Virus record (IMG/VR): IMGVR_UViG_3300030397_000543
Location: 1 to 43,860 of that record
From: a virus
Lineage: Duplodnaviria > Caudoviricetes
Strand: one strand, 5' to 3'
Length of the DNA stretch: 43,860 bases
In this document: in pieces, positions 5,997-39,201 of the stretch
Layout: each line of letters starts with the position of its first letter
How positions within the stretch are numbered: the stretch's first letter is position 1
Made by a program: the position numbers and the translations under genes
Notes under the pieces: model-generated
Told to the model about the DNA's origin: nothing
The model's database searches: none
What the model saw: the letters and a program-made list of their open reading frames with translations, nothing else

Positions 5997-7211
5997 GTGA
6001 GCGAAGAAAAAACGCCCGAAGAATTGTTGAACGGAACACAAGATGTTACCCCTGTAACACCAACATCCGATATGATATTTGGTATCGAAACCATAGAAGA
6101 CATTTTCGATATTCTTGCCCAATATCCCGAATTTGACGAATGGGAGCAATTCGGGAATGTTACGGTTAAATCGGAAGGCAATTACCTTTTGTTTAACTAC
6201 AATGCCCAAGCGACTTATCAAGGGGATTGGAACGCCTTCGAGCGCATGAGTCGCGGCTTGATTATCGACAAATACAATTTAGAAATTCGGGCGCGTCCGT
6301 TTGATAAGTTTTTTAATTGGGGTGAACACGGCTGGACCAGTGATGCCAGAGTCGATTACGCAATGCAGAAAATGGACGGTAGTTTAGGCGTATGCTGGTA
6401 CGACCCTGAAAAAGAAACGTGGCGCATTACAACACGCGGCAGCTTCGATAGCGAACAAGCAAAGTGGGCAACGGTCTATTTGCATCGTCAATATGGCATG
6501 TTCATAGATGACAATTTTTCACTTGACCACACATTTTTATTTGAAATAATCTACCCTCAAAATCGTGTGGTGGTTAATTACGGTGGTTTTCAGGGCTTAG
6601 TTCTCATTGGCGCACGCATCAATAACACGGGCGACTATTACGATGATGCAATGCTTGAAGCCTTTGCTGGAACGATACTTTGTCCTACGCCGCGCATCTT
6701 AGATTTTTTGAGCATCGACAATATCTTAGATGCTTTAAAGCATATTCAAGGTGTTAAAACCGAAGGATTCGTAACAGTACATGGTGATGGTACGCGCTGG
6801 AAATTCAAGGGCGAAGATTATTTGCGGATTCATAAGGTCGTTTCAACATTTTCCCTAAAGAATGTCGTCAAAGCGTTAGGGGAAGGGACGTTTCGTCAGT
6901 GGCTAACGGGTATCCCCGACGAATTTCTAGGCGAAATTAAAGCGATGGCAAAAGCAATTACCGCAAGAGTAGACGGCATTGAAGCCGATGTTGACCGCGC
7001 TATTGCAATGTTGACTGTACAATTAGACTATCTTCACGCAGAAGCGAAAGATAGGCGTAAAATTTTCGCGCAAAATGTCAAAGCGTATTATCCCGAATTA
7101 GCACCATACCTATTCCGCAAGTTAGACGGTAAACTAGACCGTGAATTCATCTTAAAAAAGCACGATTTTAGCGACTTGGAGAACAAAGACGATGCCAAGA
7201 GCGAGTCTTGA
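5997..7211 (+). CDS. RNA ligase, T4 Rnl1 (RnlA) family
   Basis: SRGLI...ARPFDKFFN; motif I KMDGS; TRGSF; FLFEII; EGFV; KFK. Confidence 0.92.
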   Translation: MSEEKTPEELLNGTQDVTPVTPTSDMIFGIETIEDIFDILAQYPEFDEWEQFGNVTVKSEGNYLLFNYNAQATYQGDWNAFERMSRGLIIDKYNLEIRARPFDKFFNWGEHGWTSDARVDYAMQKMDGSLGVCWYDPEKETWRITTRGSFDSEQAKWATVYLHRQYGMFIDDNFSLDHTFLFEIIYPQNRVVVNYGGFQGLVLIGARINNTGDYYDDAMLEAFAGTILCPTPRILDFLSIDNILDALKHIQGVKTEGFVTVHGDGTRWKFKGEDYLRIHKVVSTFSLKNVVKALGEGTFRQWLTGIPDEFLGEIKAMAKAITARVDGIEADVDRAIAMLTVQLDYLHAEAKDRRKIFAQNVKAYYPELAPYLFRKLDGKLDREFILKKHDFSDLENKDDAKSES

Positions 7212-9172: not shown

Positions 9173-9347
9173 AAGAGCGAAAGATTATCGGCAACGGTCT
9201 CAAGCGGCATTTGATATTCTCGTGAATTTAGGGCTAGTCCCTGATGAGGATTTTGTTAGCACTCGTGCTATTACTTATCTCAAGAAAAATGCCCTCAAAG
9301 TGGGCGACGACTATGTATTAATCGACAAGGAAGTGCCAATCGTATGA
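9150..9347 (+). pseudogene. Start-less gene fragment coupled to the ASCH gene
   Basis: +1 frame VEREQARERAKDY...KEVPIV ends in an ATGA overlap; no independent start or RBS visible. Confidence 0.4.
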
Positions 9348-9715
9348 TTTTTCAACATACCTTAGACAAGGTTCTCTCAGGACAAAAAACCCAAACCTCG
9401 CGTCTATGGCAAGACCATTGGGGCGGAGTCTTGGAAGCCAATAATAGCGTGACCGTTTTTAATGGCAATACAGGGCGTAGGCTTTACTATGCTGGGCAAA
9501 TACGGTCTGTTCAGGCAGGGCGCGGCGTAAAAGGGGTTGCCGAAATTGAGATATTGCGTGTGCGAAAATTGCAAGTGCTGAACTTTGAGCAGCGCGATAT
9601 TGAATTGGAAGGCTTCAATAATCGCCATGAATTTCTAGGCTTATGGCGTGAAATGCACCCTCACTTTATGGCGGTTGTTTTGAACTTTCGTTTAATAACC
9701 CTTTACAAAAAATAA
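9344..9715 (+). CDS. ASCH/PUA-like domain protein
   Basis: MIF...KVLSGQKTQTSR...DIELEGF...EFLGLW...VLNFRL. Confidence 0.8.
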   Translation: MIFQHTLDKVLSGQKTQTSRLWQDHWGGVLEANNSVTVFNGNTGRRLYYAGQIRSVQAGRGVKGVAEIEILRVRKLQVLNFEQRDIELEGFNNRHEFLGLWREMHPHFMAVVLNFRLITLYKK

Positions 9716-9730
9716 AAAGTAAAGTATCCT
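9702..9730 (+). promoter_or_regulatory. Conserved phage promoter copy
   Basis: CCC-TTTACA-17 bp-TATCCT, followed by an AATTCTAAGGAT RBS. Confidence 0.7.
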
Positions 9731-9762
9731 TCTGGTATTGTTAAATTCTAAGGATTAACCCG

Positions 9763-9966
9763 ATGACCGCACAAGAATATGTTCATCTTCATCAGTATTT
9801 ACAAAATGTTATTCGCCAACATTATCGGCTAAATTTTCCGCTTATGGCGCGGTGTGATAATTGCAACGCCATAGTGCCAAAAGGGGAATTGCGAACACGC
9901 TTCATGATTACTCGTTCAGCAAGCACTTGTGCGGCTTGTGACCGCGAATTAGAAAATTACGATTAA
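9763..9966 (+). CDS. Small zinc-finger protein
   Basis: CDNC...CAAC; TAAGGA RBS. Confidence 0.65.
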   Translation: MTAQEYVHLHQYLQNVIRQHYRLNFPLMARCDNCNAIVPKGELRTRFMITRSASTCAACDRELENYD

Positions 9967-9970
9967 CAAC

Positions 9971-10060
9971 GGGGATGAACGGATATGCTACCTGAACACC
10001 TTGATTGTCCCTTAACACAAGCATTCAGGTAAAACGGCGGTTCGATTCCGCCCATCTCCA
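9971..10060 (+). ncRNA. Minimal tmRNA-like RNA (tRNA-like domain only)
   Basis: GGGGATG/CATCTCC-A acceptor with G3:U70 and A73; GGCGG-TTCGATT-CCGCC T-arm; no D-stem; TACCTGAA/TTCAGGTA stem closes a short hairpin. Confidence 0.75.
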
Positions 10061-10090
10061 CTTATGTATATTTAACTAAGGATTAACCAA

Positions 10091-11080
10091 ATGAGCGATA
10101 AAACCCAAAAAATCATTGACGACCTGAAAGCGGTTATCAAAACTGAGGAAGCCCTAGAAATTGTCGATACAGACAAACTTGAAGCCCTCAAAGCCCAAGT
10201 TCGGGAATTGGAAGCATTATCGGATGACGGTATTCCGTTTGAACGTTCCGAAGTTGATGAATACATCACAGAAGCTAGAACAGGGAATAACAATCATCCT
10301 GGTATCGAAGGGCTTGCGCCTAATCTTGAAACGCCTGACGAAGAACAGGAAACGCCCGATGAAGGCAAGCTGATTATGGTCAGTAAGCTAAAAGGTCGCC
10401 CATTGGAAGAAATTTACGGCTATGTCGATACATTCAAAGAGACCGCAGAGAAATTAGGCGCTGATGAACTTGACCTTGTTCAACTGATGAACCAAGCGAT
10501 TGACCAATATAAACTCGCCCAGAAAGAATATGATACCTTCGTTGCTGGTAACAAAGACTTGTTCGATTTAAAAAGCACAATGTCTTTTGAACGTACAAAA
10601 ATGGAGCGTACTATTGCAGGTCTAGCCGCACGGTTTGCAGAACGCAATGTACGTATTCACGAAGGTGAAAAAGAGGGACTTTGGGATATTACGGTCAAAG
10701 ATGCCGATACTGTTCCAGACGGTGTAGGCTTCCAAATCAGCTATCAAATTAGTCCTGCGGCGCAGAATAAAAAAATCGAGGTCATTAACGACCCTGATTT
10801 AACTCAGTGGGCGGTGCGTTGGAATCAAACACTACTCGCAATCGACAAAAAGGTGATGGAACAACTTGTCAAAGACCCGATGGTTGCCCAAACGCTGAAT
10901 CTCATTCAAAGCGCCGTGACCTTAGATGCCAATAAGGTTGAAGATTACATGAAGCATTTGCGCGAATTATCGCTTGGCGACCAAACCCAAGAATTACTCC
11001 CCGTTGACATGCCCCCTGCAAGCATCAAGCCGTATATTCAACCAACTGTCGGCAAAATCTCCTATGAATTAGATTCCTAA
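10091..11080 (+). CDS. Hypothetical acidic coiled-coil protein; C-terminus weakly Gam/Gp157-like
   Basis: Strong CTAAGGAT RBS and 329-aa ORF; family resemblance is by eye only. Confidence 0.7.
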   Translation: MSDKTQKIIDDLKAVIKTEEALEIVDTDKLEALKAQVRELEALSDDGIPFERSEVDEYITEARTGNNNHPGIEGLAPNLETPDEEQETPDEGKLIMVSKLKGRPLEEIYGYVDTFKETAEKLGADELDLVQLMNQAIDQYKLAQKEYDTFVAGNKDLFDLKSTMSFERTKMERTIAGLAARFAERNVRIHEGEKEGLWDITVKDADTVPDGVGFQISYQISPAAQNKKIEVINDPDLTQWAVRWNQTLLAIDKKVMEQLVKDPMVAQTLNLIQSAVTLDANKVEDYMKHLRELSLGDQTQELLPVDMPPASIKPYIQPTVGKISYELDS

Positions 11081-11089
11081 TGGTTATTC

Positions 11090-11117
11090 GGGCGGTTATT
11101 TAACCGCCTTTATTTTT
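11090..11117 (+). terminator. Intrinsic terminator
   Basis: GGCGGTTA-tt-TAACCGCC followed by TTTATTTTT. Confidence 0.75.
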
Positions 11118-33860: not shown

Positions 33861-33927
33861 GTGGTCGTATCCTTAGAATTTATTGAACTTAATAGAATGA
33901 TATAACATTTTTTAATTTTTGTAAAGG
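33858..33927 (-). promoter_or_regulatory. 70-bp promoter-leader-RBS-ATG cassette, copy B
   Basis: TTTACA-17 bp-TATCAT and TAAGGA RBS; near-identical to 28901-28970. Confidence 0.85.
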
Positions 33928-34257: not shown

Positions 34258-34329
34258 TGGGGAATGCCTTAAACGATTCGGCGACCTCCCGCAGTTCATA
34301 CGGACGCTCTCCCTCTGAGCTAATTCCCC
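34258..34329 (-). tRNA. Atypical or pseudo tRNA, anticodon GAA (Phe), aberrant T-arm
   Basis: Perfect GGGGAAT/ATTCCCC-A acceptor and GCTC/GAGC D-stem; T-arm GCC-GAATCGTTTAA-GGC lacks TTCRA. Confidence 0.6.
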
Positions 34330-34614
34330 GTGAACAAAGCGAATGACTTGCCAAGTTATTCCTTCGTTCGGACTGTTTGCCACTGGCGCAGTCATTCCAG
34401 ATAATCGAATAGCCCGACTATCGGCAATTAGTATTTCGATACACCCTAATTCGGTGCTAGTCACTGGCGCAAGGTGTGACAACCTTCCCAATTTGACGCA
34501 TTGGGATACGGGTGTTTGGGATTGTGGCGCTGATGACACCATTCACCAGCATAGGTTAGGACAGTGAACCTTTCACAGTTCTTGGTGCATCGGACAAGCC
34601 CTAGTAGCCCGATG
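34330..34614 (-). ncRNA. Candidate structured ncRNA (about 285 nt) within the tRNA array
   Basis: Multiple stems: CATCGGGC/GTCCGATG, GCTGGTGA/TCATCAGC, CACCC/GGGTG enclosing TCCCAAT/ATTGGGA and GTCAC/GTGAC, GAATGACT/AGTCATTC. Confidence 0.6.
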
Positions 34615-34846: not shown

Positions 34847-34920
34847 TAGCAGGGGCGGAAATTGAATCCGCGCTCCTCGAATTGTTAATTCGTCAGAGAT
34901 AACCACCTCTAATCCCTGCA
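34847..34920 (-). tRNA. Atypical or pseudo tRNA, initiator-like body, apparent anticodon AAC
   Basis: 1:72 mismatch; GCAGGG/CCCTGC; GCGGA-TTCAATT-TCCGC T-arm; CGAA-TTAACAA-TTCG anticodon arm. Confidence 0.55.
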
Positions 34921-34922
34921 AG

Positions 34923-34998
34923 TGGGCGTGGTCGGATTTGAACCAACACGTCAATCGTCCCTTAGACGATTAGCTCTGCCATTGAGACTTACACACCC
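34923..34998 (-). tRNA. tRNA-Leu(AAG), A34 anticodon, short variable loop
   Basis: GGGTGTG/CACGCCC-A; ATCGT-CTAAGGG-ACGAT; GTTGG-TTCAAAT-CCGAC; irregular D-stem. Confidence 0.7.
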
Positions 34999-35055: not shown

Positions 35056-35138
35056 CGGAAAATGGAGGAATCGAACCCCTACGCTCTCACGCACGCCAGT
35101 TTTCAAGGCTGGTTGCCGACCATTCAGCCGCACTTTCC
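35056..35138 (-). tRNA. tRNA-Ser(TGA)
   Basis: GGAAAGT/ATTTTCC-G; loop CT-TGA-AA; long variable arm. Confidence 0.88.
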
Positions 35139-35141
35139 GTA

Positions 35142-35239
35142 TGGTGGCGCTATATTAATCGTTTCTTCGCATCGTGCAAACCGATTTGCGCGCAACCGAT
35201 TTATCGTTTTACGAAGTCTGCATTAATCGGCATACCACC
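35142..35239 (-). ncRNA. Candidate structured RNA (about 98 nt) between tRNA-Trp and tRNA-Ser
   Basis: End-to-end pairing GGTGGT/GCCACC-A, ATTAAT/ATTAAT and CTTCGTA/TGCGAAG, with two apical hairpins. Confidence 0.5.
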
Positions 35240-35241
35240 GT

Positions 35242-38574: not shown

Positions 38575-39201
38575 TCAACTCGAACTTGGCATCTGTATAC
38601 CGTCTACAAAATTCAATGCAAGCGCTTCGTCGGGTGTCATCCAGTAATCGCGCTTGAGCATGTCCCGAATCTGTTCTTCGGCAATGTCGGTATGGCGATG
38701 ATACAGATTGACGATTTGCTTCATGAGCATATCCATGTGTTTCACATCGTCTTGAACTTGTTCGTATGTCCCCCAAGCAATGCCGCTTAATTGATGCACT
38801 AAGTAGGTACTGTTAGGCATAATGACACGATGCGTTCCTGCCTGAGCAATTAGGGTAGCGGCGCTTGCGGCTACCCCTTCAACGATTGTATGAACAGGTG
38901 TTTTGAGAGTGCGGATAATATCGTAAGTCGCCATAGCCGCGCTAACATATCCGCCGTAAGAATGAATGTGTAGGTCAATAACTGGCGATACACCGAACTC
39001 AACAGCATGTAACCGCGCTTCACGGTCTAATCGTATAAGGGTCTGATTGAGTTGTGCGGTTGTATTGTTATCCACACTTGACCAAAAATGAATTTGGAAG
39101 TTCTCAGACTCTATAAAATCAAAGCCGTCATCCCCGTTCCGTTTCGGGTCACTTTCAGGCACGGCTATTTCGATTGTTTTTGCTTGGCGTATCGGTTTCA
39201 T
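38575..39201 (-). CDS. clpP: ClpP-family serine protease
   Basis: IHSYGG; GVAASAAT (catalytic Ser); LVHQ (His); RDYWMTPDEA (Asp). Confidence 0.9.
   Translation of the reverse strand: MKPIRQAKTIEIAVPESDPKRNGDDGFDFIESENFQIHFWSSVDNNTTAQLNQTLIRLDREARLHAVEFGVSPVIDLHIHSYGGYVSAAMATYDIIRTLKTPVHTIVEGVAASAATLIAQAGTHRVIMPNSTYLVHQLSGIAWGTYEQVQDDVKHMDMLMKQIVNLYHRHTDIAEEQIRDMLKRDYWMTPDEALALNFVDGIQMPSSS

Follow-up and report, generated by a model that had tools for sequence, protein, structure and literature searches.

A 90-nt tag-less tmRNA gene in an incomplete phage genome: a further member of the tRNA-like-domain-only type with a divergent elbow at the predicted SmpB-binding site

In this study we describe a small RNA gene on a 43.9-kb phage record, 63% complete, which was analysed as one stretch of 43,860 nt (the window). 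The contig carries genes for an HK97 capsid, tail proteins, DnaB and an Rnl1-like RNA ligase, and at positions 9971-10060 it holds a tmRNA's tRNA-like domain (TLD) with a hairpin in place of the mRNA/pseudoknot part (Table 1). We confirmed this RNA as a real feature. A sequence-only reading of the same DNA had named its stems, the G3:U70 pair, A73, the D region and the T arm, and all of them were found where it had placed them: the minimum free energy structure is identical to the centroid and to the fold drawn in that reading (-30.6 kcal/mol, z -3.6). This energy was matched by 1 of 200 shuffles and, for the 90-nt span, by none of 200. Every one of the 27 predicted pairs is Watson-Crick or the required G:U. 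Past helix 2a the hairpin continues through CUUG/CAAG and then UGU/ACA pairing, with pair probabilities of 0.84-1.0 (0.68-0.81 for the distal 3 bp), and only 3 of 2000 dinucleotide shuffles of the inserted hairpin alone fold equally well. After position 10060 the discriminator A is followed by CUU and not by CCA. A TLD search pattern matched once in the window as against 0 of 100 shuffles. Three contigs, all from a study that may have yielded this DNA, cross the locus at a depth of 128-197 without joints or differences, which makes a misassembly unlikely.

Table 1. Features of the RNA gene and of the putative operon around it (window coordinates).
Feature	Position	Strand	Remarks
Promoter-like site TTTACA-17-TATCCT	9702-9730	+	9/12 sigma-70 match
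67-aa ORF, two CxxC motifs	9763-9966	+	ends 4 nt before the RNA
TLD-only (tag-less) tmRNA gene	9971-10060	+	90 nt up to the discriminator; no encoded CCA
Acceptor stem, 5' strand, holding G3 of G3:U70	9971-9977	+	pairs with 10053-10059; pair probabilities 0.99-1.0
Stemless D loop, unpaired, 11 nt	9978-9988	+	GG at 9981-9982 kept
Helix 2a, 8 bp	9989-9996 with 10024-10031	+	predicted fold
Helix 2a and closing bulged hairpin, in place of pseudoknots and tag frame	9989-10031	+	fold and RF00023 alignment
Connector AAAC	10032-10035	+	4 nt; consensus is the 3-nt GAC
Canonical T arm, 5 bp and 7-nt loop	10036-10052	+	fold and RF00023 alignment
Discriminator A	10060	+	sequence
329-aa ORF, family without Pfam match	10091-11080	+	starts 30 nt after the RNA
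Terminator-like hairpin	11090-11109	+	closes the putative operon

To judge from the motifs around them, the CxxC ORF and the 329-aa ORF would likely share, with the RNA between them, a single transcript driven from the site at 9702, and the RNA would need to be cut out of this longer transcript. The promoter had been called conserved, and it does recur with its downstream leader at 33925 and 28968 on the minus strand; however, it is a mere 9/12 match, and a sigma-70 scan of the window returned 14 sites where 8.7 were expected. The RNA does lie between the two ORFs named in the sequence-only reading. For the first, which had there been called a zinc-finger gene, we found only a weak zinc-finger match in Pfam, and its Atlas neighbours are small phage and bacterial proteins without names. 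A ribosome-binding-like motif at 10077, common to other ORFs of the phage, precedes the 329-aa ORF. Further upstream on the plus strand lie the T4 Rnl1-like RNA ligase gene (5997-7211) and a gene with a weak ASCH-domain match (9344-9715), for both of which tRNA repair or modification functions are possible.

The tRNA array of the phage lies 24 kb from the RNA, which is thus indeed far from it, as had been claimed. All genes of the array mentioned here are on the minus strand. One tRNA-like gene (34258-34329, 33.4 bits, missed by ARAGORN) has a normal acceptor and D arm and an enlarged, non-canonical T arm. Two others, at 34848-34998, carry A at the wobble position: one is called Leu(AAG) by ARAGORN, the other is a probable Val(AAC) that ARAGORN missed (24.8 bits). 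Except for Arg, tRNAs with A34 are rare in bacteria. ARAGORN also missed a probable tRNA-Ser(UGA) at 35057-35137 (19.9 bits). Two further stretches of the array are structured and have no gathering-level Rfam match, a 276-nt spacer at 34335-34610 and a 100-nt hairpin at 35141-35241 (z -2.45, 4 of 200 shuffles).

Neither smpB nor a full ssrA is present on this 63% complete contig. The host assignment to Chloroflexota/Anaerolineae is tentative: the four DnaB homologues that have an organism name are from Chloroflexota or Anaerolineae, and the acceptor stem is identical to that of 26 of the 28 parsed Anaerolineae-class tmRNAs (2 of 30 loci could not be parsed), as against 13 of the 94 viral RNAs described below. 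Of six capsid clusters looked up, just one has an organism name, Marinimicrobia, at 40% identity.

With the Rfam tmRNA model RF00023 the RNA gives a single match over model positions 1-374, at 41.8 bits (E 2.7e-15) and hence below the gathering score of 47 bits. Twenty-five nucleotides stand for 304 model positions in the alignment, which bears out, together with the fold, the earlier description of a 90-nt tRNA-like domain whose mRNA/pseudoknot part has been replaced and which has no tag ORF. Partial matches to the two tmRNA ends had been expected from Infernal and ARAGORN; RF00023 gave the one end-to-end match. The RNA was called neither by ARAGORN nor by the gathering-level Rfam scan of the window, and it is absent among the 13 candidates scored with RF00005. 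The RF00023 score alone is not diagnostic, because tRNA-sized matches in bacterial genomes reach 37-45 bits. We compared the architecture with known types. The RNA has the traits of the TLD-only form of mycobacteriophage DS6A, namely a 7-bp acceptor stem with G3:U70 and a discriminator A, a stemless D loop with GG, a canonical T arm, and a helix 2a under a short hairpin without pseudoknot or tag region, while the tag reading frame and pseudoknots of a standard tmRNA are absent from 9971-10060. The permuted two-piece tmRNA (RF04321) was rejected, the gene being in standard order with a partial match of just 18.2 bits, and an ordinary tRNA-Ala was rejected since D stem, anticodon arm and tRNA-model match are all absent. 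A covariance model that we made from 26 viral TLD-only RNAs, with the window copy left out, scores the window copy at 46.2 bits, DS6A at 56.6 and the phage's own tRNAs at 22.6 or less; the margin is modest because tRNA-Ala controls reach 31-41.5 bits. In 1.17 Mb, comprising the window and 97 phage loci, the window copy is the sole match to this model. By its RF00023 score the copy ranks low within the family: 3 of the 49 matches listed score less.

The 26 RNAs belong to a viral family that we recovered by pattern searches. The TLD pattern with a short insert matched at least 119 viral loci (an estimated 430 stretches or so), a D-loop variant 20 viral loci and a pattern for longer inserts 54. 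From 189 loci we obtained 148 distinct strings, of which 33 were dropped as off-register duplicates, tRNAs or imperfect stems. There remained at least 115 viral examples of 76-116 nt, at least 94 of them non-redundant at 90% identity. Because the pattern prescribed the T loop, G3:U70 and the GG, and only full acceptor and T stems passed the filter, these elements are not independent evidence. Helix 2a was free of constraint, and across the 94 sequences it is paired to 74% in register; a shifted register gave 33-46% and between-sequence controls gave 44%. In an alignment of 26 sequences, two-sided changes occur at 7 of 7 helix 2a pairs. The first helix pair of the window copy is U:A, a two-sided change seen in 16 of the 94. 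A covariation check on homologues in related phages had been proposed earlier; the compensatory changes of helix 2a were seen in the viral family, and close relatives of the window copy were not found. CCA is encoded in 30 of the 94. A tRNA lies no further than 1 kb away in 9 of the 57 family loci with long flanks; at L009, one of the loci kept, ARAGORN calls a tmRNA that overlaps the RNA.

For 50 of the 94 family records, picked for long contigs, we looked for the genes of the trans-translation system. None of the 50 encodes SmpB, including the 17 that are at least 90% complete, and none has a full-length tmRNA; 49 of the 50 have exactly one RF00023 match, which is always the short form. Since no phage SmpB was found, the partner of these RNAs, if there is any, would be the SmpB of the host. 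Phage TLD-only tmRNAs may be a large class (at least 94 non-redundant sequences versus 9 curated standard entries without a coding sequence), mostly unannotated, and their spread has been under-recorded because ARAGORN and the Rfam gathering cut-off miss such copies. A 100-nt TLD-only RNA (L371:2124-2223) has the same acceptor stem as the window copy. It stands at the head of a tRNA cluster (Leu/Leu/Leu/Tyr), and the capsid fragment downstream of this cluster is 41% identical over 51 aa to the capsid of the window phage. In Pseudomonas phage SM1 (L140, NC_041877.1) we noted an unannotated tRNA-like cluster at ~53700-54130 that also has a tmRNA-like 3' end without a matching 5' end nearby.

The window copy had been put forward as an undescribed system, which it is not: the TLD-only type is already published, it is common in uncultured phages, and the window copy is a further member of it. 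DS6A is listed as 'TLD only' in PMC4131195, and we located its gene at L145:979-1058 (tmRNA Website tmID 11587, Phage__Mycobacterium.9). Both are phage genes in standard order with G3:U70, A73, a stemless D loop, a short hairpin closing helix 2 and a canonical T arm, both are without a tag frame and do not fully encode CCA, and the DS6A gene is unannotated in its GenBank record. DS6A differs by its length of 80 nt and by having a D-loop UCGAC with a 3-nt connector, where the window copy has AUGCU and the 4-nt AAAC. According to PMC4131195, citing Mao 2009, a molecule similar to that of DS6A inhibits tmRNA strongly whether chargeable or not, perhaps by titration of SmpB; PMC11915505, citing the same work, reports that the DS6A form itself inhibits endogenous tmRNA in E. 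coli, so that the passages of the two sources disagree on which molecule was tested. Either way the E. coli test concerned the DS6A form or a similar one and not the window copy. The 2025 database described in PMC11915505 holds 9 standard no-CDS, 72 permuted no-CDS and 79 phage entries among 97,179 sequences. Neither a widespread family of phage TLD-only RNAs nor the Poribacteria copy described below was the subject of any paper found in the literature searched, in which subscription journals are thinly covered, and the relevant passages of PMC10690425, which treats tRNA-like viral RNAs, do not include the TLD-only form.

A standard tmRNA (ssrA, RF00023), acting with SmpB, shares the whole tRNA-like domain, but it has ~350-420 nt with pseudoknots, resume codon, tag frame and stop, none of which the 90-nt window copy has, and its elbow consensus is only partly kept here. 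CDS-less tmRNAs of organelles (mitochondrial in jakobids and oomycetes, RF02544; plastid in Mallomonadaceae) are likewise TLDs without an mRNA-like domain; they are mostly permuted and serve the organelle's own machinery, whereas the window copy is a phage gene whose host, unlike the organellar setting, presumably has a full ssrA. PMC11915505 reports the conservation of such tmRNAs both in mitochondria that have SmpB and in some plastids, where CDS-less genes of ~65 bp are described, and tmRNA processing, AlaRS identity and the mitochondrial forms are covered in passages of PMC3968760 and PMC3985003. A tRNA-Ala shares the acceptor identity elements and the T arm, and differs by its D stem and anticodon arm. 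The same architecture, at 82-83 nt, was also found on chromosomes of Ca. Poribacteria, where 18 of 101 genomes have the short TLD-only copy and 17 of these also a full ssrA (L238:5001-5082, L204, L273, L275, L202, L214, L271, L280 and L306). Unlike the window copy, the Poribacteria copy lies on the chromosome in a syntenic position, has an intact UCGAC motif and is preceded by a promoter-like site of its own; at all seven loci with long flanks it is convergent with one gene that reads as decarboxylase-like. Further TLD-only candidates of 83-109 nt were seen in cellular assemblies (L259, L229, L243, L282, L308), among them one amid housekeeping-like genes in a Fibrobacterota MAG (L259:4212-4294) and one in a MAG labelled Caldarchaeales (L229:1726-1829).

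The one trait that sets the window copy apart from the known type is its divergent elbow, read in E. coli numbering with the T stem and the D-loop GG as fixed points. The equivalents of U17-C18-G19-A20-C21 read A-U-G-C-U and those of G332-G333-A334-C335 read A-A-A-C, with one extra base that is either a connector insertion or a helix bulge. The elbow keeps three of seven consensus bases (G19 at position 9987, A334 and C335); U17 is changed to A, C18 to U, A20 to C and G333 to A, while the A15 equivalent at 9983 is kept. The stemless D loop had been taken as a feature of the SmpB-binding domain, but it had been missed that contact bases depart from the consensus. The connector is one base over the consensus, and the D region has no UCGA motif. 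For comparison, TCGAC and GGAC are kept in all 32 parsed full-length tmRNAs, which are the best Rfam scorers and hence consensus-biased. Among the 94 viral family members 34 keep all seven elbow bases, 60 keep six or seven, 14 keep three or fewer, which is the level of the window copy, and 70 keep both G19 and A334. Divergent elbows occur in unrelated contigs as well (L478, L474, L476, L120-L139), one of which, L478, shares the AAAC connector. As described in PMC8363625, A15, U17 and A334 form the pocket for Trp122 of SmpB, and G19, stacked with C18, is essential, its change to C abolishing trans-translation. The altered contact bases weaken an SmpB-based reading for the window copy.

Searches for close relatives covered proteins as well as the RNA. 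The 329-aa protein and the RNA ligase had no match in viral contigs; the 329-aa protein found only itself in the protein collection and no usable match in the Atlas, and capsid and DnaB alignments reach 45% identity at best. DnaB and capsid relatives with 76-77% identity are on record as P0003, P0122 and P0123. No TLD RNA was detected in 97 capsid- or DnaB-related phage loci, nor in any of 50 related records, which are at most 45% identical, mostly incomplete and lack a positive control. The capsid had no match in 401 Anaerolineae-class genomes at E 1e-60 (without positive control), and the family model none in 151 such genomes at E 1e-9, a cut-off so strict that a 46-bit copy would probably have been lost; this search, too, lacked a control. 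BLAST against cultured phages matched T arm and acceptor only, and none of the five matches inspected is TLD-only: one is full-tmRNA-like, one an ssrA fragment by an integrase (L144), one a tRNA and two are ambiguous. A metagenome pattern scan returned 10 loci, seven tRNA-Ala and three TLD-like (two distinct sequences), the latter not closely related to the window copy. The matches of a long-gap scan of genomes, which by design left out the 76-81-nt class, were for the most part either tRNA-Ala or the 3' end of a full tmRNA. Among the sequencing runs listed, no RNA runs hold this locus.

How could such an RNA act? The sequence-only reading had named an SmpB decoy first among its ideas, and this is the best explanation: we see an about even chance that the window RNA is a processed, alanylated competitor for host SmpB that lowers trans-translation and SsrA tagging during infection. 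Judging from the motifs, it would likely be transcribed within the 9702-11109 unit; by analogy with tRNA and tmRNA processing, host RNase P would then likely free it, together with trimming of the 3' end. The host would likely also add the CCA that the gene lacks, and with the identity elements G3:U70 and A73 present, alanylation is likely. Host SmpB is predicted to bind through the kept equivalents of G19, A15 and A334, probably more weakly than it binds the host tmRNA, since the equivalents of U17, C18, A20 and G333 are changed. The RNA has no resume codon or stop, so that normal tagging and release are impossible, and on balance both tagging and proteolysis would fall. In support of this reading stand the structure, the family membership, and the absence of the tag region and of smpB from the contig; the inhibition reported for a DS6A-type RNA, the kept G19 and the two kept bases (A15, A334) of the three in the Trp122 pocket; and, for an Anaerolineae-type host, the acceptor-stem identity and the names of the DnaB homologues. 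Against it count the three of seven elbow bases, the low RF00023 rank and the small margin over tRNA-Ala, and also the tentative host with its Marinimicrobia capsid homologues (40%). From its elbow, the window RNA would perhaps be a weak competitor. Blocking trans-translation is not always good for a phage, because lambda-immP22 requires it, with a 10,000-fold loss of plating in its absence (PMC2862035). The syntenic Poribacteria copy beside a full ssrA is also hard to square with sabotage of a host.

That last copy favours a tag-less form of rescue: together with host SmpB and EF-Tu, the alanylated RNA would move into empty A sites, take over the nascent chain and extend it by at least one alanine without a template, so that stalled ribosomes would be handled without the host tag. 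Shimizu and Ueda 2006 are cited in PMC3929946 for template-free polyalanine synthesis in vitro by a TLD with SmpB, CDS-less tmRNAs persist in mitochondria with SmpB and in some plastids, as noted above from PMC11915505, and perfect acceptor and T arms would suit AlaRS and EF-Tu, where a pure sponge needs no charging; the invariance of G3:U70 is no evidence here, because the search pattern fixed it. Yet without a stop codon release would require another factor, an altered elbow would harm tailing as much as sponging, and the single in vivo effect of the TLD-only form reported in the sources cited is inhibition. We regard alanine tailing as unlikely. Independently of SmpB, the anticodon-less, tRNA/tmRNA-shaped RNA might serve as a sink for those nucleases or sensors of host defence that are directed at tRNA or tmRNA. 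At the elbow the bases are relaxed, with the acceptor, the T arm and the helix intact, such elbows recur in unrelated contigs and in the 14 members that keep three or fewer bases, the phage has an Rnl1-like ligase and many tRNAs, and defence systems, the CoCoNuTs, are predicted to target tmRNA via SmpB-like domains (PMC10542128). However, G19 and A334 are kept here and in most of the family, as expected if SmpB matters, and no experimental precedent was found in the literature searched. This kind of decoy is quite unlikely. Quite unlikely, too, is the broader idea that the window copy marks a recurring, elbow-remodelled subclass, an Ala-charged anticodon-less decoy or tag-less ribosome ligand that would act against RNA-targeting defence or with a partner other than host SmpB.

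The same elbow could also be the mark of a once functional TLD-only gene in decay. Four substitutions and a one-base insertion, the low family scores, the degenerate tRNA-like genes of this phage (34258-34329) and the missing copies in the 50 distant, mostly incomplete records point this way, but all 27 pairs are sound, the changes are limited to unpaired elbow positions, and the first helix pair is a two-sided change; we consider decay improbable. Far less probable still, and largely refuted, are an ordinary tRNA-Ala, an attP fragment of ssrA or a misassembly. A tRNA-Ala would share acceptor and T arm and reach similar RF00023 scores (37-45 bits), and 3' fragments of ssrA do adjoin integrases in some phages, as at L144. 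However, RF00005 does not list the window copy, which has neither an anticodon arm nor a D stem. The gene has its two ends, which pair with each other, and no integrase was found among the 41 ORFs scanned of the 63% complete contig. The sequence-only reading had also named a misassembly as a ground against itself, and the three contigs that span the locus without joints speak against it.

As a single locus without a relative, the window copy adds little beyond the known type. It is nevertheless a natural elbow variant and makes the question of sponge, rescue or decoy testable beside a consensus copy. If such RNAs dampen trans-translation, phages would have a compact, RNA-only means to retune the main bacterial pathway of ribosome rescue and protein degradation, a pathway that is also pursued as an antibiotic target. 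In this context a stand-alone ClpP-like protease gene at 38575-39201 on the minus strand, which the phage has besides its HK97 prohead protease, may be worth noting, as the RNA would have an effect on SsrA tagging.
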